A stretch of DNA of 64,000 bases from a virus. Its lineage: Duplodnaviria > Caudoviricetes. Numbering within the stretch: the first letter of the stretch is position 1; every line of letters begins with the position of its first letter. The position numbers were made by a program, and so were the translations under genes. The notes under the pieces are model-generated. The model had not been told where the DNA came from and ran no database searches. It was given only the letters and a program-made list of their open reading frames with translations. Shown here piece after piece: positions 124 through 28,277 of this stretch. The stretch covers positions 1-64,000 of the IMG/VR virus record IMGVR_UViG_3300042275_000327; one strand, 5' to 3'.

Positions 124-632
124 AAAAATTGATGATCGTATTGTTGTGTATTGGAGGGATGTTGTTTGGTGCTGAACAGGCAAGCACATCATTCAACGTA
201 AATCTAAAAATCGATCCTGTACATCAGATCAAGATTCTTAAAGAGACACCAGCAAATGTTGATGTGTTCGATACAGCAACGACATTGACTGGTCATACAT
301 TCACTGAACTTGCAACAAGTGTATCTGATTACAAGATGGTTGTGAAAACAAATAACAAAAGTCATGTATCTATTGATGTAATTGTAGAAAATATGAAGAG
401 TACAGGGATTACCAGTGAGATTGCATACACAATTGTATCTGGCACAAATGAGGTAACATCTGCAAGTACAGAGGTTACTGACGAGCTTTTCAGTGAAGCT
501 ATTCCTTTGTCAAATAACGGTATGCGCTTGCTTGTGCAACCTTTTACCATTACATTAGATAGTACAGATATTGACAAGGCCACAGCCGCAACATATATAT
601 CTGACATTGTATTTAAAGTTATCGCTCCTTGA
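120..632 (+). CDS. Secreted beta-sandwich protein, fimbrial-subunit-like
   Basis: Signal peptide MKKLMIVLLCIGGMLFGA; Thr/Val-rich; C-terminal ATAATYISDIVFKV strand resembles pilin/WxL-like subunits. Confidence 0.5.
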   Translation: MKKLMIVLLCIGGMLFGAEQASTSFNVNLKIDPVHQIKILKETPANVDVFDTATTLTGHTFTELATSVSDYKMVVKTNNKSHVSIDVIVENMKSTGITSEIAYTIVSGTNEVTSASTEVTDELFSEAIPLSNNGMRLLVQPFTITLDSTDIDKATAATYISDIVFKVIAP

Positions 633-670
633 TACCTTATTTTCTAGTGTTCATTTTTATCCTCCTTTTT

Positions 671-710
671 GGAGCTCTAAGTTGAAAAATTTAGAGCTCC
701 TTTTATTTTT
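671..710 (+). terminator. Rho-independent terminator
   Basis: Stem GGAGCTCTAA/TTAGAGCTCC followed by TTTTATTTTT. Confidence 0.8.
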
Positions 711-731
711 GAAAAAAGATTAAAATTTTTA

Positions 732-760
732 TTTACATAATAAAGATTATAGTATATACT
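732..760 (+). promoter_or_regulatory. Sigma70-like early promoter (class I)
   Basis: TTTACA-N17-TATACT with upstream A/T tracts and a downstream GAGGAG RBS. Confidence 0.75.
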
Positions 761-791
761 TTAATTAAGTTAAAGAAGAGGAGATTCAAAG

Positions 792-1028
792 ATGACTAAA
801 TTAGAAAGAATTGACAAACAAATAAAAGAGCAAATCGGGGATTTCTCTTTCACCAAAATTGAAGAAAGCTACAAAGATTTCTCAATTGATCAGCTGAAAG
901 CTGGAATTCTCAAACTGAAGAAAGAAGGAAAGCTGGAAGATCCAGAATTAACAAAGATGATGGATACTTTTGAAGCAAAAAACGAAAAAGCCTTTTTCAA
1001 GTTTTTAAATAAATCTTTTTACTGCTAG
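792..1028 (+). CDS. Hypothetical early protein
   Basis: GAGGAG RBS; first gene after the promoter. Confidence 0.7.
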   Translation: MTKLERIDKQIKEQIGDFSFTKIEESYKDFSIDQLKAGILKLKKEGKLEDPELTKMMDTFEAKNEKAFFKFLNKSFYC

Positions 1029-1046
1029 AATAGGAGATATTCAAAG

Positions 1047-1229
1047 ATGAATGACAGAGAAAAATGCCAAGAAATTGCAGAAGCTGAAAAAGGCTGTGGG
1101 AAGGTCAGTTTTTCGTGTGAAGAATGTCCTTTAATGATAGAAGATTCTAAATATCATTGTGGTAATTTTACAAGCAGCAAAAGAGCAGCTATAGCCTTTT
1201 TAGAAGATAATAAGGAGATTCAAAAATGA
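1047..1229 (+). CDS. Small Cys-rich hypothetical protein
   Basis: AGGAG RBS; KGCxxV..C..CPL motif shared with 4135..4389. Confidence 0.65.
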   Translation: MNDREKCQEIAEAEKGCGKVSFSCEECPLMIEDSKYHCGNFTSSKRAAIAFLEDNKEIQK

Positions 1230-1447
1230 AATACTACATTGAAAAAACAGTAAGAAGTCTTCCAAGAATTGGACATGAAAATGGGATTGTCACTCAGTTT
1301 TATCTGACAGCTCTTGGATTTGATACAGACAAGAGTGAGTGTGTCTATTTCAACTCTACTCAAGCAGAAGCAATCTGTAATACTCTACAAGAAATTCCTA
1401 CTGAAGAACAAGTAGAATTCAGGTATTATCCTGAAAAAAATTGTTAA
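1226..1447 (+). CDS. Hypothetical protein
   Basis: AAGGAG RBS, ATGA overlap. Confidence 0.65.
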   Translation: MKYYIEKTVRSLPRIGHENGIVTQFYLTALGFDTDKSECVYFNSTQAEAICNTLQEIPTEEQVEFRYYPEKNC

Positions 1448-1460
1448 AATCAAGTATACT
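1432..1460 (+). promoter_or_regulatory. Class II promoter-like site
   Basis: TGAAAA-N17-TATACT. Confidence 0.5.
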
Positions 1461-1481
1461 CTAATTATAGGAGATTCAAAA

Positions 1482-1868
1482 ATGGATATGGATAAAACAA
1501 GAGAAACAAGAATAAAGATTGAAAGAGCTATCGGCGAAGCTCTGATTGATTGGACTGAGAAAGAGAATCCAAAATTATCCAGAGATGAAGTCATGGAAGA
1601 TTCTATTAAGAATATTAATTCTTGGGAAGTCAAAGGGTCAAATCTTTCAGAAGATGAAGATGGAGTTTTAAAATATACTCTCATTGTTGAAAGACCTGGA
1701 TTAGTGATTGGATCAATGGGAAAACAGATCAAATTCTTGATTAAGCGTTCAAAAGAAATTCTTGGATTTGATTATGAACTTCATCTCAATGAACAAAAAA
1801 GATCTCATTTATATGATGTTATGGATGGATGGTTTTCTATGAGAATGCTTCAGGAGGGAATACTGTGA
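1482..1868 (+). CDS. Type II KH-domain protein, ribosomal protein S3-like
   Basis: YTLIVERPGLVIGSMGKQIKFL resembles the S3 KH segment ([14 protein letters not shown]) and has a GxxG loop. Confidence 0.65.
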   Translation: MDMDKTRETRIKIERAIGEALIDWTEKENPKLSRDEVMEDSIKNINSWEVKGSNLSEDEDGVLKYTLIVERPGLVIGSMGKQIKFLIKRSKEILGFDYELHLNEQKRSHLYDVMDGWFSMRMLQEGIL

Positions 1869-2350
1869 GATATCCAATAGAAGAATATGAAATTTTGTAC
1901 AAGGGAACAAATTATGATATGACTTGTAGAGGTCTACAATATACCATGGATAGAGAGCATGTTCATTATGGGGATATTGGTATTTGCTATAGTGGATTTC
2001 ATGCTTGTAGAAATCCTCAAAATGTTTCAGCATTTTATCCTGTTCTCACTGAAAATTGTAGGATATTCAAAATTCTTGGACATGTTGTTTCAGAATTCAA
2101 AGGTTTTAGTGGATATCCAAAAGTAGTTTGTGACTCTATCAAATTTTTAGAAGAAATTACAATTACAGATTTAATAGATGTTCTTGATAACAAGAAGATT
2201 GATGATCCTCTTTATAAGCTTGCACATAGTCTTGAATTTAGAATAGACAAAATGAGAGAATATAAAGAGAAAAAAAAACATATGAAGAAAAGGTATCCTG
2301 GTTCCTTAGAAGAATCTGGGCAACAAAATACTATACAATCAATCAGATGA
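1865..2350 (+). CDS. Conserved phage protein with GFHAC motif
   Basis: YKG...CRGLQY...CYSGFHACRNP motif; likely GTG start at 1865 after GGAGG. Confidence 0.55.
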   Translation: MRYPIEEYEILYKGTNYDMTCRGLQYTMDREHVHYGDIGICYSGFHACRNPQNVSAFYPVLTENCRIFKILGHVVSEFKGFSGYPKVVCDSIKFLEEITITDLIDVLDNKKIDDPLYKLAHSLEFRIDKMREYKEKKKHMKKRYPGSLEESGQQNTIQSIR

Positions 2351-2571
2351 AAAAATTCATTGATTATATAGACTCTTTAGATGATACACATCTTTTTCAT
2401 TTTTTATCTGCTGGCTGGGGTTATTCTCTAGATGATATCAGGAGTTTACCAAGAGAATTTAAATTTTTAGGAAAAAAATCTCATACTTATCCAGATTCTA
2501 GTGATTCTTATGAATATTGGTATGAGAAACAATCCAAAAAACTCAATAGAAAAAGGAAGACTCAAAAATGA
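2347..2571 (+). CDS. Hypothetical protein
   Basis: ORF with ATGA overlaps on both sides. Confidence 0.6.
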   Translation: MKKFIDYIDSLDDTHLFHFLSAGWGYSLDDIRSLPREFKFLGKKSHTYPDSSDSYEYWYEKQSKKLNRKRKTQK

Positions 2572-3620
2572 AGAATGAATTTTCTATAATTGAAGATAAA
2601 GAAACAAAATTTCTATTTTCAGAAGAAGCAAATTATGCTTTCAACAAAGAGACTGGATATATGGAATCTTGGGGAAGAACTCGAGAAGACAATCCTGTGA
2701 AGTTTCCTGCTCCAACAATTCTCGATTTTGAGGTCACTACCAAGTGCACTGGAGTTGGGGGAGTACTTTGCCCATTCTGCTATAAGGCAAATAATCCAAA
2801 TGGAAAGAATCTTTCTTTTGAGAATTTCAAAAAGATTTTTGATAAGCTTCCAAGATCTATCACTCAGATTGCTTTTGGAGCAGACTCTAAATGTATGACA
2901 AATCCTGATATTTGGGACATGATGCTTTATGCAAAAGATAAAGGAGTCATTCCTAATATCACAGTAGCAGAATTAGATAAAGAGACAGCTTGTAAACTTG
3001 CTTCTATTTGTGGAGCTGTTGCAGTCTCGAGATATCACAACCCAGACATTTGTTATAATTCTGTAAAATATCTTGCAGATTGTGGATTGAAGCAAGTCAA
3101 TATTCATTATATGATTGCAGAGGAGACTTATGATAGAGCAGTACAGACAATCAAGGATGCAGCTACAGACGAAAGATTGAAAGATTTGAATGCTATTGTG
3201 TTCTTGAGTCTAAAAACCAAAGGTAGAGGAGAGCACTTTCATCCTCTATCACAAGCTAAATTTGACTCTCTGGTAAATCTTTGCAATGAACTTAATATAT
3301 CATATGGTTTTGACAGTTGCAGCTCTCTGAAATATTTCAGGAGTCTCTCTGATAAAGAATACAAGCTTTACTCAGGTTATGTTCAACCTTGTGAGTCTAC
3401 TCTAGAAAGTTCATACATTAATGTAGATGGAGAATTCTTTCCTTGTTCATTTACTGAAGGAACTCAAGGATGGGAAAAAGGAATCTCAGTTCTAGACTGT
3501 GACAATTTTGTAGATGATGTTTGGAACAATCCTAGAACAGAAGAGTTCAGAAATAGACTTCTTGGTTCTACCTGTAAAAACAGATTTGGATGTCGTGAAT
3601 GTCCAATATATACAATCTAA
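2568..3620 (+). CDS. Radical SAM enzyme with C-terminal SPASM/Twitch-type domain
   Basis: DFEVTTKCTGVGGVLCPFCY (Cx7Cx2C); C-terminal PCES...YINVDGEFFPCSF...CRECP. Confidence 0.85.
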   Translation: MKNEFSIIEDKETKFLFSEEANYAFNKETGYMESWGRTREDNPVKFPAPTILDFEVTTKCTGVGGVLCPFCYKANNPNGKNLSFENFKKIFDKLPRSITQIAFGADSKCMTNPDIWDMMLYAKDKGVIPNITVAELDKETACKLASICGAVAVSRYHNPDICYNSVKYLADCGLKQVNIHYMIAEETYDRAVQTIKDAATDERLKDLNAIVFLSLKTKGRGEHFHPLSQAKFDSLVNLCNELNISYGFDSCSSLKYFRSLSDKEYKLYSGYVQPCESTLESSYINVDGEFFPCSFTEGTQGWEKGISVLDCDNFVDDVWNNPRTEEFRNRLLGSTCKNRFGCRECPIYTI

Positions 3621-3635
3621 ATGGAGAAAAAATAA

Positions 3636-3950
3636 ATGCTTTCAAACAATCTTGAATTTAAAGAGTCTGAAGTTTCTAATGACACTCTGATTTTGGTAAA
3701 TGGTTCTATTGTAGGAGATTTTAATACTGATGGAAGAGTTAGATTTTTTGGATCTTCTACCTCTATTACTCTTCTAGCATATGAGAATCTCAAGGATATC
3801 TGTAATAAGATAGAAGAAAATATCAGAATCCAAATAGAAAACGATTGGAATGAGTGTGATGACTGGCAGGAGAATGAAGCTTTCTTTGATGATCTAGGAG
3901 AAGATGAAGAAGAGGATTTTGTCTTCGATCCTGATGATACTTTTTTCTAA
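3636..3950 (+). CDS. Hypothetical protein with acidic C-terminal tail
   Basis: GGAG RBS; tail DDLGEDEEEDFVFDPDDTFF. Confidence 0.65.
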   Translation: MLSNNLEFKESEVSNDTLILVNGSIVGDFNTDGRVRFFGSSTSITLLAYENLKDICNKIEENIRIQIENDWNECDDWQENEAFFDDLGEDEEEDFVFDPDDTFF

Positions 3951-3961
3951 GGAGAACAAAA

Positions 3962-4138
3962 ATGATCTTTAAGCATGAACCAACAGGATATTATGTAGAA
4001 GCAGAAAGTCCTTTGAAAGCAAAGTATATTCTTCAAAAAGAAGTAAGAAAAGATTTTCATTCCATAGATTTTAAAAGAGTAGAATCTGTTCCTTTTATGT
4101 CTATTTCAAAATTTATCAATAGAAGGAGATCTAATTGA
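3962..4138 (+). CDS. Small hypothetical protein (58 aa, not in ORF track)
   Basis: AAGGAG RBS; MIFKHEPTGYYVEAE...; fills the gap between neighbouring genes. Confidence 0.55.
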   Translation: MIFKHEPTGYYVEAESPLKAKYILQKEVRKDFHSIDFKRVESVPFMSISKFINRRRSN

Positions 4139-13094: not shown

Positions 13095-14471
13095 ATGAAA
13101 GATGCTGCAACAAAAGTTTGTAAAATTCTCCAGGATCATGGACACCAAGCAGTCTTTGCTGGAGGATGTGTCAGAGACATGCTTTTGAAAAAAGAGCCTC
13201 ATGATATTGACATTGCCACTAGTGCTACTCCAAAAGAAGTTGTAGAAATTTTCAAGAAAACTGTTCCTATTGGAATATCTTTTGGAGTTGTTCAGGTTCA
13301 TATGGATGGATTTCAGTTTGAGGTTGCTACCTTCAGAACAGAGTCAAAGTCTTCCGATGGAAGAAGACCAGATTCTATTAAATTTTCCTCTATGGAAGAA
13401 GATGCAAAAAGAAGAGATTTCACAGTCAATGCTCTTTTCTATGATCCAATAAAAGATGAGATCTATGATTTTGTAGATGGGAAAAACGATATTTACACTA
13501 GAACTCTTCGATTTGTTGGAAATCCAAAAGAAAGACTTGAAGAAGATCAATTGAGAGCATTGAGAGCCATCAGGTTTTCTTCAAATGACTTCAAACTTGA
13601 TAAAGATACTTCTTTAGCTCTTTTATCAGCAGATATCTCTAAGCTCTCAAAAGAAAGAATCAAATCTGAATTGGATAAGATATTGCTGTTAAAAAATTGT
13701 TCTGAAGCTTTTGAAAGACTGATGGGATTTGGACTTTTAGAACAGATTATTCCTGAGATGAAAGATCTATTGACGGCATATCATGAAATAAGATGGCATC
13801 CTGAAGGACATCCTTGGAGACATACTCTTATTGTCTTGGATCTAGCTAGAAGTCGGACTGACAATCTTAATATTCTTTGGGGAGCTCTCCTTCATGATAT
13901 TGGAAAGCCAGCAACTGAAAAAGTCATAGACGGAAAATATACAAATCATGGACATGCTGAAGTTGGAGAAGAAATTGCAGAAAAGATCTTGAGAAATTTA
14001 AGAGCTCCTAATTGTCAGATTGATGAAGTAAAATTCTTGGTAAAGAATCATATGAGAATCAAGAATGCTTCCAAGATGAAAAAGTCTAAGATTGCTCGAC
14101 TGAAAGCAGAAAAGTTCTATGAAGATCTGAGACTTCTCTCTATCTGTGATTCTCAGGCAACAGGAATTCCAGAAAATCTTAATTGGGTAAAACACCTAGA
14201 CAAGGTAGAGGAATATAAGGAACTCCCAAAACCATTTCTCAATGGATATGATTTGAAAGATATTGGAGTTCTTCCAGGTTCCTGGATGGGATATCTTCTA
14301 GACAAGCTTATGGATCTTCAATTAGAAGGAAAGATAAGAGACAGAGAAGATGCTTTAGTTGAGGCAAAAAGAATAATTAAAGAAGATAAGAACGCTGATC
14401 ATACCTATTTTTCAAATATGATTCAGATGGGAATGAATCCAGGATTTATGAAAAGAAAATATGAAAATTAA
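13095..14471 (+). CDS. cca: CCA-adding tRNA nucleotidyltransferase (class II) with HD domain
   Basis: GGCVRD, DIDIAT, EVATFR, EDAKRRDFTVNAL, EEDQLRALRAIRF; HD motif LLHDIGKP. Confidence 0.9.
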   Translation: MKDAATKVCKILQDHGHQAVFAGGCVRDMLLKKEPHDIDIATSATPKEVVEIFKKTVPIGISFGVVQVHMDGFQFEVATFRTESKSSDGRRPDSIKFSSMEEDAKRRDFTVNALFYDPIKDEIYDFVDGKNDIYTRTLRFVGNPKERLEEDQLRALRAIRFSSNDFKLDKDTSLALLSADISKLSKERIKSELDKILLLKNCSEAFERLMGFGLLEQIIPEMKDLLTAYHEIRWHPEGHPWRHTLIVLDLARSRTDNLNILWGALLHDIGKPATEKVIDGKYTNHGHAEVGEEIAEKILRNLRAPNCQIDEVKFLVKNHMRIKNASKMKKSKIARLKAEKFYEDLRLLSICDSQATGIPENLNWVKHLDKVEEYKELPKPFLNGYDLKDIGVLPGSWMGYLLDKLMDLQLEGKIRDREDALVEAKRIIKEDKNADHTYFSNMIQMGMNPGFMKRKYEN

Positions 14472-16295: not shown

Positions 16296-17474
16296 ATGAT
16301 TTATGTAGTAACACCAGTTTATGAATATGATGAATATCCAAAAATAGAAGAATTTGATACAAAAGAAGAAGCTCTTCAATTTATCAGTAAAGATTTAGAA
16401 AGAAATTGGTCCTCTAGTTTTCAAAATGGTCCTGATGACTATACAGCAATAGAAGGAAGAAAACTAAAACTGAAGGCAATTCAGTATGCTAGCAGAGTCA
16501 TTGAAGATAAGACCAATTCTTGTGATCTGAAATTTCCTTATGAATGGGAAAAGATGATCTAACAAAGGAGAAAGAAATGATTTTTGTAATAATCCTTTTT
16601 CTATTAATTCTCATCTTTCTATATCAAGAAGATCATAAGAATATTTCAGATCCAGGTCCTTGGGAAGAATGGGATCAATATGATGAAAATAAAAAGGAAG
16701 ATAAATCATGACAAGAAATAGTGATGATCTGAAAAAGGAATTTAATCTCTCTTTGGAAAAACAAGCAGGATTTACTTACGAAAGATGGCTTGAAAACGAA
16801 ATTCAAAAGGTTGAGAATGAAAAAGAAGAATATAGAAGATTCGCTGACCGTATGTCATCGGAAGCTAACAGTTTAGCTGGACAGTTAAAGAGTATAGTTC
16901 ATCATCTTGACCATCGCATTGTTACAAATGGAGAATGGAGTAAAGTATGAAAATTGATAAGGACTATATATACCAAAATCAAAAACAAAGAGTCATTGGT
17001 GGTAATTTTCATGCAGGAAAAACAGCAGGACAATATAGTACACCAAAAGACAATGATTCAATACTTTGTGGTGGACAATGGAAAGATGCTATGGATAGAG
17101 ATCTAGAAAGAGATCCTCCAAGATTTGAAATTAACTATCATTATATACATCATACTATGAGAAATATTGCATTTGACATTTTTGATGATCAGGAGAAAAC
17201 AAAATGAAATCTAGAAAGAAGTCAGTAGTAATTGATGCAAATCATCAAATAGAACCAACATTTACTAAGGTAGGAGATAAGTAATATGGGAGATAGCTAC
17301 ATAATTACAGATATTGAGGTATATAGAGATGCCTACCAGATTAATTTAAGAAATACTTCTAATGAAGTAAGTGTTAGAACATTTATTACTAAAAGTATGT
17401 TATTAGAGCTATTAAGTCATGCTGAAAGTACTAGCAGATATAATGATTATATAGGGGAAAGAAATGAAATTTAG
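16296..17474 (+). other. Run of small hypothetical genes (16296..16562, 16708..16950, 16947..17207, 17286..17474)
   Basis: Consecutive short ORFs with RBS or overlaps; no recognisable motifs. Confidence 0.55.
17204..17284 (+). pseudogene. N-terminal remnant of a copy of the 17464 gene
   Basis: 34 of the first 37 nt match the start of 17464 (MKSRKKSVVIDA vs MKFRKKPVVIEA). Confidence 0.6.
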
Positions 17475-17922
17475 AAAGAAGCCAGTAGTAATTGAAGCAA
17501 TGCAGTTTAATGGATTAGAAGATTATCTAAAAATAGTAGATTGGGCTAAAAGTTTTGACGAATCAATTGCTGATGGATTCGGATATACAACTCCAATCAT
17601 GCTAATTCCTACATTAGAAGGAACAATGAGTGCCAGTCCTGGAGACTGGATTATCAGAGGAGTAAATGGTGAATTCTATCCTTGTAAGCCAGATATATTT
17701 GAGAAGACATATGATAAGGTAGAATTACCTAAAGAAATATCCCTTTCTCCTCTGACCATTACTTTTAACATTGATCCTAACACAGTCGAGCCTGAGTTCT
17801 TAGAAGATATAAAGTTTGAAGAGATTAAGGGTGATGTGTATGATATTCCTCTAGATATTATGAGGAAATGGATTGAGATTGGGAATGCCAAAGAAGAAAA
17901 ACAAACCACAAAGAATGTATAA
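17464..17922 (+). CDS. Conserved phage protein (KKPVVIEA/PGDW family)
   Basis: MKFRKKPVVIEAMQF...IPTLEG...PGDWIIRGVNGEFYPCKPDIFEKTY. Confidence 0.8.
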   Translation: MKFRKKPVVIEAMQFNGLEDYLKIVDWAKSFDESIADGFGYTTPIMLIPTLEGTMSASPGDWIIRGVNGEFYPCKPDIFEKTYDKVELPKEISLSPLTITFNIDPNTVEPEFLEDIKFEEIKGDVYDIPLDIMRKWIEIGNAKEEKQTTKNV

Positions 17923-17984: not shown

Positions 17985-18106
17985 TTTCTTCCAACAGTGG
18001 AGAAGTGAAGGCATCCAAGGGTGATTGGATGATCAAAGGTGTAGAAGGAGAATTCTATCCTTGTAAACCAGACATTTTTGAAAAGACCTATAAACCAGTA
18101 GAATAA
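17985..18106 (+). pseudogene. C-terminal remnant of a copy of the 17464 gene
   Basis: Reads VKASKGDWMIKGVEGEFYPCKPDIFEKTYKPVE*. Confidence 0.65.
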
Positions 18107-18123
18107 AAGAGGATAGAATATAA

Positions 18124-18504
18124 ATGAAAGAAATGACAATAGAAGAAGCAATCTCTCATTGTTTGGATAATGTAAAGAAAGAAATGAAAGCTTTGCACTT
18201 ACAGTGTGCCCTTGAACACTTGCAATTAGCAGAATGGCTGATCAGTTTTGAAAGCTATAAATCCAAAGCAGAGTCTTATGACAGGTTGATCACAAATAGA
18301 GAGGAAACAATTCAAGGGTTTATTGAGAAATATTGGGACAAACAAGTAACTGACTTCCATTTGAGGATAGATAGTAGAAATTCATTTTATATTCATCCTG
18401 ATTTGATTAGTGGTGATACTGTCAATTTTGAGGTATGTGGAAACAGTTTGAAAACCATTTGTTATGATGCTTTACCAGATGAATGGAGGGAAAAAGATGA
18501 TTAA
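18124..18504 (+). CDS. Hypothetical protein
   Basis: MTIEEAISHC...CALEHLQLAEWL, a common phage motif. Confidence 0.6.
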   Translation: MKEMTIEEAISHCLDNVKKEMKALHLQCALEHLQLAEWLISFESYKSKAESYDRLITNREETIQGFIEKYWDKQVTDFHLRIDSRNSFYIHPDLISGDTVNFEVCGNSLKTICYDALPDEWREKDD

Positions 18505-18811: not shown

Positions 18812-19045
18812 ATGATTGAGTCCAAGATTAATACAGCTAGAGTTGAAAAAGAATTTCCAAAATTGATGGTTTATGATGGTCTGATTGTTTTGATGAAAAT
18901 GAAAACACAATTTCATTATTCAGGAATTGTTTTATCAACTAGAGAAGATGAACTTGATTGGGTAGTAGGAGACTACTCTGATTCATGGTCACCAGACTTA
19001 TTTATTGATTTTAATGGTAGTGTAACAATAAGAAATAAAGGATAA
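18812..19045 (+). CDS. Hypothetical protein
   Basis: AAGGAG RBS; FPKLM...GIVL...GSVTIRN; AGAAAT-N17-TATACT upstream. Confidence 0.6.
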   Translation: MIESKINTARVEKEFPKLMVYDGLIVLMKMKTQFHYSGIVLSTREDELDWVVGDYSDSWSPDLFIDFNGSVTIRNKG

Positions 19046-19053
19046 AATTAGAG

Positions 19054-19428
19054 ATGGATAAATATAGAACTCTTGCATCAAAAATTTTTAACAAGACATC
19101 TGAAGAGATCTCCTCTGATCAAAGAAGAATAGCAAAAACTATTGGATTTGGAACTTCCTATGGAGGATATCTAAAGATGAATACTAAGAAAGAACTTGAT
19201 AATATAGAAAACTTTGTTTCAGGATTATCAAAAGAACAGTTTGATACTCTCTTTCGTAAAAACCTCTCATCAGAATTTCCTGACCTTGATATGGATTGGG
19301 AAGATGTTAGACAAACTCAAGAATCTATAAAGGATTCTTTCAATCTATTAGATTATGATACATTTGAAAAAAGACTTTTTGCCTTTCTTGATTCACAGGG
19401 AAAAAGTCCATCGGAGGAAAAAAGATGA
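19054..19428 (+). CDS. Small protein composed of DNA-polymerase motif fragments
   Basis: QRRIAKTIGFGTSYG (PolA motif B-like), FPDLDMDW (DnaE-like), DYDTFEKRLFAFL (PolA motif A-like). Confidence 0.6.
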   Translation: MDKYRTLASKIFNKTSEEISSDQRRIAKTIGFGTSYGGYLKMNTKKELDNIENFVSGLSKEQFDTLFRKNLSSEFPDLDMDWEDVRQTQESIKDSFNLLDYDTFEKRLFAFLDSQGKSPSEEKR

Positions 19429-20057
19429 AAATTGACCAGCTATTTGAAGATGCAGTAGAACCTATTGCTGAGAAAATTTCTGCTAGAAAACAAATGACAA
19501 GAGTTGCTTCTAGAACCATAAGAGATTTCAAACGAAAGAAAAAGTCTATTGAAAGAGGACATCTTAATTACCTGAAAGATCTTGTTCACTATAAAGGAAT
19601 GAACAAGTCCCCTCTTGAGATTGATCCTGATAGTAAATATGATGACAAGATGACAAAGATCTTTTCTAAGCTTCTTGAGCTGATAAATATTGTTAGATCA
19701 TATGGGATGGATGATATTTTATCAGAGTATATTCAGGCTCTTGAAGATAATGATATTTATTTGTCTTTCAATTCACCAGAATCAAAATTTACAGAAGAAG
19801 AACTACAAGAAATCAAAGAGACTATCTATAAGATGAATAATTTTCAGACAATCATCTGTGATAATGCTAATATAGTAAAAGATGAGCTTGCTCCAGAAGC
19901 AGAGAAAGAAGATTTTTCCAAAGCTTCAGAATTTCCTGTTCTAGCAAAAATCTACTATGATAAAGAAAAACTAGAAAAAGATCTAACTGAAAAAGGAAAT
20001 AGAATTCTTGAAAAAATGGATAAGACTAAGAAAGCATATGAATATGTTTTACAATAA
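19425..20057 (+). CDS. Hypothetical helical protein
   Basis: GGAGG RBS, ATGA overlap. Confidence 0.65.
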   Translation: MKIDQLFEDAVEPIAEKISARKQMTRVASRTIRDFKRKKKSIERGHLNYLKDLVHYKGMNKSPLEIDPDSKYDDKMTKIFSKLLELINIVRSYGMDDILSEYIQALEDNDIYLSFNSPESKFTEEELQEIKETIYKMNNFQTIICDNANIVKDELAPEAEKEDFSKASEFPVLAKIYYDKEKLEKDLTEKGNRILEKMDKTKKAYEYVLQ

Positions 20058-20681: not shown

Positions 20682-21049
20682 TTCAAACAGAGCTTAAAAA
20701 AGTCTATAGAGTATTTGATCCTTCTGGAAAGGAAGGACTGTGGTATACTTCTGATAAGATTCAGACAAACAAAATTAAAAGAATACTTCCAGAGAATGAT
20801 ATGCCAATGGATAGATCAGCTGTTTATAGTCTTAATGATAAAATTTGGAGATCTTCTGCTTGTTCTTTTGAACAGTTGAAGTATTGGTTTTCTTTTGATG
20901 AATTATCAAAATTAATTTCTAATGGATTTATTCTAGGAGAATTTCTTGTTACAGAATGGATGGATCTACTTCATGGAGAAGTAATATTCAGTGAGGGATC
21001 ACTGAAAAGAGTAATTGATATAGACAGTCTTAAGGAAATAAAAATATGA
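20678..21049 (+). CDS. Hypothetical phage protein
   Basis: YRV...GLWY...LKYWF motif. Confidence 0.6.
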   Translation: MIQTELKKVYRVFDPSGKEGLWYTSDKIQTNKIKRILPENDMPMDRSAVYSLNDKIWRSSACSFEQLKYWFSFDELSKLISNGFILGEFLVTEWMDLLHGEVIFSEGSLKRVIDIDSLKEIKI

Positions 21050-21588
21050 TTCTAAACTATTGGGGATTAGTAAGAGCAAAAGAGAAAAACTCTGAAAGAT
21101 GGGTAGAAGGAACATATCATAGACATGTACATATGTATAAAACTCTTAATGATGAAAAAGCAGAAATATACCAAGAAATAATTTCTCATCTTGTAATTGT
21201 TGATGATGTCTGTAGAGGAAGTTCAAAAAATATTTCTTTTTTCGAAGTAATTCCTGAAACAATCAGTCCATATACTGGAAGAAAAGACAAATATGGAATA
21301 AAAATTTTTGTTCATGACATAGTGAGACCAAATTATTTTGACGGTAAATATTTTGAGGTTCTTCCTTGTGAAGGAAAAAGCGGACTTGAATGGCATCTTG
21401 GTGCTATCTCTAACTATTGGACAGGCAGAGAAGTAGAAATAATTGGGAATACTATAGATGATCCAAAGATGATGGAGAATGTTCCTGATGATTTGAATGC
21501 TCTACAAATATTTAATAGTGAGATAAATACTCAAAGAACAGATGAAGTAATATTGAAAATGTTTTATGAAGCAATGGCAAAGAAGTAA
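21046..21588 (+). CDS. YopX-family protein
   Basis: RAK...WVEG...PETISPYTGRKDKYGIKIFVHDIV...EIIGN. Confidence 0.75.
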   Translation: MILNYWGLVRAKEKNSERWVEGTYHRHVHMYKTLNDEKAEIYQEIISHLVIVDDVCRGSSKNISFFEVIPETISPYTGRKDKYGIKIFVHDIVRPNYFDGKYFEVLPCEGKSGLEWHLGAISNYWTGREVEIIGNTIDDPKMMENVPDDLNALQIFNSEINTQRTDEVILKMFYEAMAKK

Positions 21589-21665: not shown

Positions 21666-22379
21666 ATGAGAACATTAGTAATTGGTGATATCCATGGTGG
21701 ATATAAGGCCATGATGCAAGTTCTGGAAAGAGCAAATTTTAATCTACAAGAGGATACTCTGATTGGATTAGGAGATTATGCAGATGGATGGCCAGAAGTA
21801 TTTGAGACAATAGAGTATCTAAGAAATCTTCCTAACTTCATTAGTGTTCTTGGCAATCATGACGATTGGCTTCTGGATTACCTGACAGCTGGGAACACCC
21901 CATTCATTTGGACTTCACAGGGAGGAACTGTTTCTATAAAGAGTTATGCAGGAGTCTCTCAGGAGCTCAAGGAAGCCCACAGAGAGTTTCTTCAGTCTTT
22001 TCCTTATTATTATATTACTAATGATAAATTATTCATCCATGGAGGTCCTACACCTGTAGAAAATGGAGTCAGAATTGATCTCATAAGTGGATATGATATG
22101 ATGTGGAGTAGAGAGCTCTTTAAAGATGTAGCTTATTCAGTATTTTACAATAAAGATATAGGTATCAAGACAGATCCATTTAAAGAAATTTACATTGGAC
22201 ATACAACCACACAGATGGTCCAACCAGATTTTACTCCAGTATCCAAATATGGGATATACATGTTGGATCAAGGAGCTGGATGGAATGGAAAATTGACTGT
22301 AATGGACATAGATACAAAGGAATATTGGCAGTCTGATCTTGTACCAACCCTGTATCCAGAAATAAAAGGAAGAAAATAA
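21666..22379 (+). CDS. Metallophosphoesterase (Ser/Thr protein phosphatase-like)
   Basis: GDIHG, LGDYADG, GNHD, FIHGG, IGHT, LDQG. Confidence 0.9.
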   Translation: MRTLVIGDIHGGYKAMMQVLERANFNLQEDTLIGLGDYADGWPEVFETIEYLRNLPNFISVLGNHDDWLLDYLTAGNTPFIWTSQGGTVSIKSYAGVSQELKEAHREFLQSFPYYYITNDKLFIHGGPTPVENGVRIDLISGYDMMWSRELFKDVAYSVFYNKDIGIKTDPFKEIYIGHTTTQMVQPDFTPVSKYGIYMLDQGAGWNGKLTVMDIDTKEYWQSDLVPTLYPEIKGRK

Positions 22380-24745: not shown

Positions 24746-25267
24746 ATGGCTAAAGAAGAAGAATACAAAAGCTACATAAGAAGCCATAGAGAAAATGTAA
24801 AGAATGCATTTACATTTTGGAGAAGAACAGATGATGCTCAGAATCTTTTTGGAGGGGAAGGATTGGAAAATATGGAAAGTCTTATTGGAAACCATGATCT
24901 TTCTAAATATTCCACAGAAGAATTTGATGCTTATCGAAAGAATTTCTTTCCTTATGAGAATGAAGTTTCAGATGAATCAGCTTTCAGCGATGCTGTTCTT
25001 CATCACTACAATCACAATCCTCATCATTGGGAATATTGGGTCATACCGAGGAATCCAGAGAATGAGCTTATTCCTATTCCAATGAGATTCCTAGTAGAAA
25101 TGCTCTGTGACTGGACAGCAATGAGTTTTCAGAAGGGAGGATCTGTGATTAGCTGGTTTGAAGAAAATCAGGAAGAAATGGTTTTACATTCTGAGACAAA
25201 AGAGTCTATAAGATATCTTCTTCCTGGTTTTCAGTATGTTTTAGAATTAATGAGAGTAAAAGGATAA
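24746..25267 (+). CDS. HD-like metal-binding protein (DUF5662-like)
   Basis: HRENV, HDLSKY, HHY.HNPHHWEYW, EMLCDW. Confidence 0.75.
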   Translation: MAKEEEYKSYIRSHRENVKNAFTFWRRTDDAQNLFGGEGLENMESLIGNHDLSKYSTEEFDAYRKNFFPYENEVSDESAFSDAVLHHYNHNPHHWEYWVIPRNPENELIPIPMRFLVEMLCDWTAMSFQKGGSVISWFEENQEEMVLHSETKESIRYLLPGFQYVLELMRVKG

Positions 25268-27293: not shown

Positions 27294-28277
27294 TTGGCAA
27301 AGAAAAATGGACCTTCTAAAGAAAGAACAATAGACATTTCAAACTCATATGCAAGATATGGAACACAAGCAACTCTGTCTACATTTGGAATTCAAGAAGA
27401 GACTATGAAGAGATATCTTCGAGAATTTAGAAAGATTCAGGGAAAAGAAGAATATGAGAACATCATTCTTGCAGGAAGAATGAGAGATAAATATTCAAAG
27501 AAAGAGATTGATGCTATTATAAATGACAAAGCTACAGGACTGAATGAGATCAATGTGGAAACAGTAAAACTGAAAGGAAGTAATTCTATCAAGTTTGCAG
27601 TTCTATCTGATCTCCATCTAGGCTCTAAGTTTACCTCAGACTCTTTTATGAAGAAAGCTATAGAATATATAAACAATTTAGATCTAGACTTTGTGGCACT
27701 TCCTGGAGATGTTACAGAAGGCATGAGCAATAGAGATGGACATGTATATGAACTGACTCATATAGGATATCAAGCTCAGAAGAATTATGCAGTCTCTCTT
27801 CTGAGTGAGATCAGACATCAGATGTTTGCAATCTCTGGAAATCATGATGGCTGGTTCTTCAAGAGCATAGGAGCTAGAATTGTGCAAGATATTTGTGACT
27901 CTATTCCAAATGCAACTTATTTAGGAGATGACTTTGCGACTCTGAGAGTTCCTAATGGACCTGATATTGGACTGTGGCACGGATTTGATGGGGCTGCTTA
28001 TGCCAAAAGTTATCGATTACAAAAAATTATTGAATCCATTGATGTTGAATGCAGACCACAACTACTTCTTGCAGGACACGATCATAAGTATGTTTCTCTA
28101 TTCTCTGGTGGAGTTTATGGACTTGGATGTGGATCCATGCAGTCTCAGTCTAACTGGATGAAAGGAAAGAGACTAGAAGCAAATGTAGGATTCATATTAG
28201 GTGAGCTCAATTTTGAAGGAAAGAGAATCATTGGATTTACCCATACATTCATGAGACCTATGTTTTTAGAAAAATAA
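27294..28277 (+). CDS. Calcineurin-like metallophosphoesterase
   Basis: SDLHLGS, PGDVTEG, SGNHD, LWHG, AGHDH; TTG start after AAGGAG. Confidence 0.88.
   Translation: MAKKNGPSKERTIDISNSYARYGTQATLSTFGIQEETMKRYLREFRKIQGKEEYENIILAGRMRDKYSKKEIDAIINDKATGLNEINVETVKLKGSNSIKFAVLSDLHLGSKFTSDSFMKKAIEYINNLDLDFVALPGDVTEGMSNRDGHVYELTHIGYQAQKNYAVSLLSEIRHQMFAISGNHDGWFFKSIGARIVQDICDSIPNATYLGDDFATLRVPNGPDIGLWHGFDGAAYAKSYRLQKIIESIDVECRPQLLLAGHDHKYVSLFSGGVYGLGCGSMQSQSNWMKGKRLEANVGFILGELNFEGKRIIGFTHTFMRPMFLEK

Follow-up and report, generated by a model that had tools for sequence, protein, structure and literature searches.

The closest described counterparts of the small gene reported here are the fingers of family A DNA polymerases (Klenow, KlenTaq, Bst and Pol theta; PF00476) and the split polA genes of phages. 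In split or intron-interrupted phage polA genes (those of Agatevirus, of the SPO1-like phage Goe26 and of Ralstonia phage Bakoly) an ORF boundary lies near motif B, as in the gene described here, and in the three examples listed in Table 1 (L009, L012 and L013) the break falls within a few to ~70 codons of that motif, which shows that the polA region around motif B is a recurrent breakpoint. The PolA of the T7-like phage S-SBP1 is split between its exo and pol parts (PMC10201439). Since the published reclassification of PolA discarded sequences shorter than 350 aa (PMC10201439), fragments of the size described here lie outside its scope.

The DNA that we analyzed, referred to below as the window, comes from an uncultured phage and makes up the first 64 kb of its linear record (147.6 kb, with an estimated completeness of 86%). 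It contains an ORF of 124 codons that is colinear with the fingers of family A polymerases from residue 2 to about residue 96, sharing with them the R/K/F/Y residues of the O-helix and the FP-x-L-x-x-W helix. The ORF differs from those polymerases in that it stands alone at 124 aa, without palm, thumb, exonuclease domain or motif C, and scores below the Pfam cut-off; within the fingers themselves, the His of D-x-H is replaced, about 8 residues are inserted after Y-G; the C-terminal 28 residues could have come from either of two PolA regions. It also differs from the split polA genes, the pieces of which are adjacent and jointly make up a whole enzyme, whereas this ORF lies 70 kb from a complete PolA that was not its donor and has no complementary pieces. 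We conclude that, apart from a short helical tail at its end, the ORF is essentially one contiguous fragment of the PolA fingers tip, equivalent to KlenTaq 636 to ~705. As to its origin, we favor a captured polA fragment, left behind by recombination yet still read as a gene, to which we assign a probability of roughly 0.6.

The ORF was found exactly where the first-pass annotation had placed it (Table 1). The stop codon of the upstream gene ends at position 19045, and the ATG of the ORF follows 8 nt after that stop. At the other end, the GGAGGA ribosome-binding site of the downstream gene falls inside codons 120-122, and this 210-aa gene (19425-20057) is predicted from the ATGA overlap to be translationally coupled to the mini-ORF. 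The 16-nt junction sequence that holds the ribosome-binding site and the overlapping stop and start, GGAGGRAAAAAGATGA, has two occurrences in the window, 15 of the 16 positions being identical between 19413-19428 and 18485-18500 (repeat family D8). The two copies bracket a 928-nt block with three small ORFs, of which the mini-ORF is the last, and the duplicated junction could be a cassette boundary or a chance match (rough expectation ~0.1). The in-frame codon log-likelihood of the ORF was 0.43 per codon, which exceeds the mean for the plus-strand ORFs of the genome (0.32 +/- 0.09), while the other five frames were negative (-0.44 and -0.93 for the other forward frames). Native codon usage was seen in each of the sub-segments taken separately (residues 1-37, 38-89 and 90-124), and the GC3 of 0.19 is like that of the neighboring genes. 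With an intact frame and a codon score above the genome mean, the ORF is not an obviously decaying pseudogene, in agreement with the earlier assessment.

Table 1. Features of the fingers-fragment ORF, its accessory block and the split polA genes used for comparison. Positions are those of the window, except in the last three rows, which refer to the phage named.
Feature	Position	Strand	Basis or remark
Stand-alone PolA fingers-fragment ORF, 124 codons	19054..19428	+	ORF table, sequence
Shine-Dalgarno-like AAAGGA	19037..19042	+	11 nt upstream of ATG; read from sequence
PolA helix N, loop and O-helix (motif B), residues 2-37	19057..19164	+	Pfam, Klenow/Pol I alignments, HMM, phage PolA alignments
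Colinear PolA post-motif-B helices (O1, O2, FP-x-L-x-x-W helix), residues 38-96	19165..19341	+	Alignments, HMM, structural re-alignment
Supposed "DnaE" heptapeptide, residues 76-82	19279-19299	+	Inside post-motif-B segment
Predicted amphipathic helix (101-114) and tail, residues 97-124	19342..19425	+	Helix prediction
Motif-A-like element, residues 100-112	19351-19389	+	Motif A tests
GGAGGA Shine-Dalgarno and ATGA stop/start overlap	19413..19428	+	ORF table, sequence, repeat search
CCA-adding enzyme / poly(A) polymerase-family protein with HD domain	13095-14471		PF01743, PF01966, PF12627
YopX-family protein, two calcineurin-like metallophosphatases, DUF5662 protein	21046-21588, 21666-22379, 24746-25267, 27294-28277		Same accessory block
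Bacillus phage SDFMU_Pbc (L009, Agatevirus) polA pieces	517-3174, 3453-4112		First CDS stops 8 codons past motif B; gap of 278 nt to the next CDS
Ralstonia phage Bakoly (L012) polA pieces	1753-2904, 2908-3723		
Bacillus phage Goe26 (L013) polA pieces	114-1931, 2782-3708		

Residues 2-37 had been assigned to PolA motif B, and this assignment was borne out. PF00476 matched residues 2-38 with an E-value of 2.5e-6 and 27.1 bits (26 bits in a six-frame search), a score under the family's gathering cut-off of 34.3 bits, and there was no other Pfam match in the ORF. Klenow aligned to the motif at chain residues 409-444, other solved Pol I chains aligned at the same place, and a cellular Pol I of 833 aa (P0003) had 59% identity to the ORF across residues 1-37 (pairwise E 1e-13). 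Within residues 24-37, the R, K, F, G, Y and G of the O-helix pattern R-x-x-x-K-x-x-x-F-G-x-x-Y-G are kept, R24, K28, F32 and Y36 being the equivalents of Klenow R754, K758, F762 and Y766. Two substitutions were seen in this stretch, where the His of D-x-H has become Tyr and the Asn of N-F-G has become Gly.

The PolA likeness does not stop at motif B. With cellular Pol I profiles there was no colinear signal over residues 38-124 (401 of 1000 shuffles scored as well), because the cellular enzymes are too divergent in this part, and phage PolAs were needed to see it. In tblastn searches against isolated phages, the PolA alignments ran far past residue 37, spanning residues 2-89 of the ORF with Acinetobacter phage Ab1-TPeters, 2-82 with Gordonia phages and 2-80 with Ralstonia phage RP13. 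When residues 38-124 were compared with the post-motif-B segment of the PolA of Gordonia phage Nibbles, a z of 6.8 was obtained (1 of 3000 shuffles as good), and residues 38-89 against the full-length Nibbles PolA gave a z of 5.65 (0 of 1500 shuffles as good) at an offset of 0 after motif B; the PolAs of Ab1 and RP13 gave the same offset for residues 38-89 (pooled p ~0.007). Two IMG/VR PolAs also supported the alignment of the tail (z 3.3 and 2.3), one of them (L037) aligning out to residue 96. An HMM built from diverse PolAs took up residues 2-87 in a single domain of 50.2 bits, and an alignment of the ORF with five diverse phage PolAs had 11 columns invariant in all six sequences. All residues that are invariant here among the functional PolAs are retained, except the His of D-x-H; F75 and W82 are among those kept. 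A language-model search with residues 38-124 placed 20 of the 30 nearest clusters in a small-protein family, 32% with PF00476, which we treat as a lead only.

The heptapeptide at residues 76-82 lies inside this colinear segment, and it had been taken for the catalytic PD-x-D-x-DF motif of DnaE, so that the protein would be a mosaic in which two polymerase families each contribute active-site motifs. The letters do occur, and as an exact pattern they are rare by chance (8 of 200,000 shuffles), but no profile of DnaE/Pol III alpha (PF07733) matched the ORF at E<=10, and the heptapeptide falls on the FP-x-(L/V)-x-x-W helix of phage PolAs, in native order and ~40 residues past motif B. Since the heptapeptide is colinear with a PolA helix and no DnaE profile matches, the two-family mosaic is refuted; the supposed DnaE motif is PolA's own post-motif-B helix.

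From the single sequence the AlphaFold model was poor (pLDDT 46), while a model based on an alignment of 14 natural PolA segments had six helices and a pLDDT of 70, reaching 85-92 over residues 1-30. A Foldseek search with the better model returned no match at E<=0.001 (best E 0.44), and its top neighbors were all family A polymerases. On re-alignment of the PolA-informed model, residues 1-90/96 corresponded to KlenTaq 636-700/705, Bst 679-743/750, Klenow 731-795/802 and Pol theta 2356-2420. In KlenTaq, residues 636-705 form the mobile end of the fingers, which is made up of helices N, O, O1 and O2. Superposition on PolA fingers gave Z scores of 4-5.3 and an rmsd of 2-3 Å over 55-65 residues, a weak match from a model that was informed by PolA rows. 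That the structural match is weak (Z ~5) and not independent of the rows used in modeling is to be set against the reading as a captured leftover.

The last 28 residues are where the readings divide. Sequence comparison offers two candidate origins for residues 97-124, one being a permuted motif A/helix L and the other a diverged version of the colinear "GRRR" strand region with a 7-residue insertion. The first-pass annotation had seen PolA motif A at residues 100-112. In a targeted test the motif A blocks of 11 PolAs gave a mean z of 2.8 (3 of 3000 shuffles as good), compared with a mean z of 0.19 for the colinear GYV...GRRR segment in the same head-to-head test; a null drawn from 466 real phage ORFs put a motif-A match of this quality at ~0.2-0.3% per 42 residues, before correction for ~12 alternative blocks; p was 0.001-0.005 in these targeted tests. 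A diverse whole-domain HMM, applied to residues 90-124, had motif A as its best site (p 0.010-0.023), and a cellular Pol I HMM gave p 0.044 for the element. Against this, pairwise comparison with full-length PolAs put the motif-A score at chance (p ~0.3), with motif A still the top site in 6-10 of 12, and both MAFFT and global alignments placed the same residues colinearly on GYV...GRRR with an insertion of 6-7 residues. Taken together, the targeted tests and HMMs (p ~0.01-0.05 corrected) are suggestive of motif A homology, and the colinear reading fits equally well. The reversed order of motifs that had been claimed relative to Pol I rests solely on this marginal element. The ORF begins at helix N, and no PolA signal was found upstream of it in any frame; the catalytic Asp of motif A, N-terminal to motif B, is absent; the motif-A-like element lies out of its native place, at the C-terminus, and is predicted to be helical.

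If the element is motif A, the ORF might be a circularly permuted fingers domain, in which motif B and the post-motif-B helices are followed by motif A/helix L moved to the C-terminus. Such an arrangement could have come about by tandem duplication of a fragment with trimming at both ends, and the product could be a functional, self-contained fingers domain. The point at which the ORF begins is exactly the end of the motif A block in native PolAs, as a permutation would have it, and residues 101-114 are predicted to be helical, like helix L, even where the aligned PolA rows have a strand; the preference for motif A in the unbiased whole-domain HMM, in the full-length PolAs, and against shuffles and real proteins points the same way. 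The pairwise scores at chance level and the colinear placement with one insertion speak against it, as do two further observations: a second, degenerate copy left by a tandem duplication was not found in any frame of the flanks, and HMMER aligned a small ORF of another phage (L046, below) colinearly too. In addition, the hypothesis was derived from the same sequence on which it was evaluated. Overall, we regard a permuted domain as unlikely. Nevertheless, the C-terminal likeness to motif A is not explained by a simple contiguous fragment, and this counts against the captured leftover.

Homologue searches placed the ORF on its own. Near-length, longer-protein, single-sequence and alignment searches found no homologue among 1.84 and 5.8 billion proteins, nor in IMG/VR. 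In an exhaustive HMMER search of the 1.84 billion representatives, the one real match besides the ORF itself was P0003, over residues 1-37; a second match, P0002, was rejected as a repeat-protein artefact. In IMG/VR, searched with the single sequence and with an alignment, every match lay inside a PolA frame of 696-1109 aa or a split piece of 321 aa. The phage has a PolA of its own, encoded ~70 kb away as a complete 834-aa frame that covers PF00476 model positions 3-375 and has its own motif B and post-motif-B helix. This polymerase is identical to the ORF at 10 of 22 positions of motif B and has no similarity to it in the tail, and a recent duplication of the resident gene was rejected on these grounds. 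The closest donor lineage that was found has ~33-36% identity in the tail, and the lack of anything closer is a point against capture.

The resident enzyme also bears on whether the ORF could be a subunit of a split polymerase, supplying fingers in trans to a core encoded elsewhere. There is precedent of a kind in the isolated phages with polA split near motif B and in the exo/pol splits of T7-like PolAs (PMC10201439). However, the sole other PolA locus in the 148-kb record (86% complete) is a complete 834-aa frame, and no other PolA pieces were found nearby in six frames, so that this reading is largely refuted and we consider it extremely improbable. No other PolA remnant, frameshifted or not, was found in six frames within 2 kb on either side of the ORF. 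Motif C (H-D-E), the thumb and the exonuclease domain are absent from the 124 aa, the HMM match ends at position 335 of 557, and none of them appeared further on in six frames. Since palm carboxylates in a palm context, motif C, thumb and exonuclease domain are all lacking, the product cannot polymerize. The description of the ORF as polymerase-derived and far too small to be a polymerase holds.

The window has a GC content of 34%, and the ORF sits among tightly packed small plus-strand genes in what appears to be an early/accessory block. Its neighbors include a CCA-adding enzyme, a YopX-family protein, metallophosphatases, a DUF5662 protein and ORFans (Table 1). No tRNA genes were found in the window and there was no Rfam match; no homing endonuclease or second polymerase was found near the ORF, promoter and terminator scans at the locus were at chance level, and no meaningful flanking repeats surround the ORF. 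The genes flanking the ORF had no relatives in our searches. The phosphatase at 21666 has relatives in 17 viral contigs that are otherwise non-syntenic; these 17 loci share almost nothing else, and the fingers-fragment ORF is absent from them. Another gene of the block, an ORF with a PGDYG domain (17464-17922), is followed immediately by a truncated second copy of its 3' end (17990-18107), the DNA of 18020-18104 being ~79% identical to that of 17641-17725. Phages as different as those of Streptococcus, Cellulophaga and Brevibacillus have PGDYG genes that are matched by the same stretch of 85-95 nt. This remnant lies 1 kb upstream of the fingers-fragment ORF and looks like a recombination scar, and with such a truncated copy nearby, the accessory block carries scars of recombination.

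In this setting, illegitimate recombination may have captured a fragment of polA into an accessory block that bears other scars. The donor was a foreign phage-type PolA lineage, and not the phage's own complete polymerase; the breakpoint would have been near motif B, where breaks are frequent in phage polA genes. The fragment would have gained an ATG at its first codon, with the reading frame running on as far as its junction with the downstream gene; the two are putatively coupled in translation. Its product is most likely a translated by-product without a selected catalytic role, and any activity would probably be binding through the retained face of the O-helix, not enzymatic. The intact frame fits capture, since a piece taken from a real gene will naturally be open. 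The ORF resembles the gene remnants and fragment-derived ORFans of mosaic accessory regions in being a singleton among small genes, with the truncated PGDYG copy close by; it differs from typical remnants in its intact frame, start, codon usage and coupling, and in that it matches a discrete structural subdomain, not an arbitrary piece. Two observations weigh against a leftover: native codon usage throughout, including residues 90-124, together with coupling on both sides, also fits a long-maintained, selected gene, and the keeping of PolA-invariant residues, except the His of D-x-H, is unexpected under long neutral decay.

Such features could instead belong to an exapted binding protein, a free fingers tip kept for binding a host factor, a defence sensor, nucleotides or a replisome partner, a class that includes the decoy or mimic originally proposed for this ORF. 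The intact frame with codon usage above the genome average, the position in an early/accessory block and the retention of R24, K28, F32, Y36 and the structural residues F75 and W82 are what such a protein would be expected to have. The conserved residues are equally expected in a recently captured piece of a working polymerase, though, and no homologue in the databases searched gives a sign of spread or selection. PADLOC returned no match for the ORF and its neighbors, and neither the ORF nor the neighbors had a defence-related signature. The premise of a two-family display of epitopes has fallen with the mosaic. We judge exaptation improbable, and the decoy in particular is pure speculation; the captured fragment explains the anatomy with fewer assumptions than a decoy or mimic.

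A possible parallel to the fingers-fragment ORF was found in a 190-kb IMG/VR phage (L046:11998-12579). This ORF of 193 aa is likewise a small ORF in a phage with a full PolA, which has a complete 702-aa frame, and it has a colinear likeness to PolA from motif B through the post-motif-B region (HMM 266-378) that is weak but significant (1 of 2000 shuffles as good). It also has a similar D-aromatic-x-x-hydrophobic-E-x-R element ~20 residues after FP-x-L. The L046 ORF differs in its Arg-rich N-terminal helix and has no Pfam match, it matches its own PolA best in another region, and it has no sequence similarity to the fingers-fragment ORF (best BLASTP E 0.16, off-register). It is a parallel, not a proven relative. 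One could go further and propose that stand-alone, possibly permuted PolA fingers-tip proteins are a recurrent accessory class of large phages, which arise repeatedly from polymerase genes and are kept, as decoys or regulators, for what the O-helix binds (nucleotides, a partner in the replisome or a host protein that senses phage polymerase), with this ORF and the L046 ORF as two independent members; we hold this to be distinctly improbable.

The case warns against deducing a mosaic origin from short "active-site motifs". Should the ORF be nothing more than a captured fragment, it shows cleanly how, in nature, a phage accessory region can make a new small ORF out of a discrete structural subdomain that belongs to an essential enzyme, and such ORFs would be raw material for gene birth. 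Should fingers-only proteins prove to recur and to be under selection, they would be binding modules of a new kind, derived from polymerases and active in phage-host conflict or in the control of replication. Polymerase engineers, too, would have an interest in a PolA fingers tip that folds by itself in isolation.
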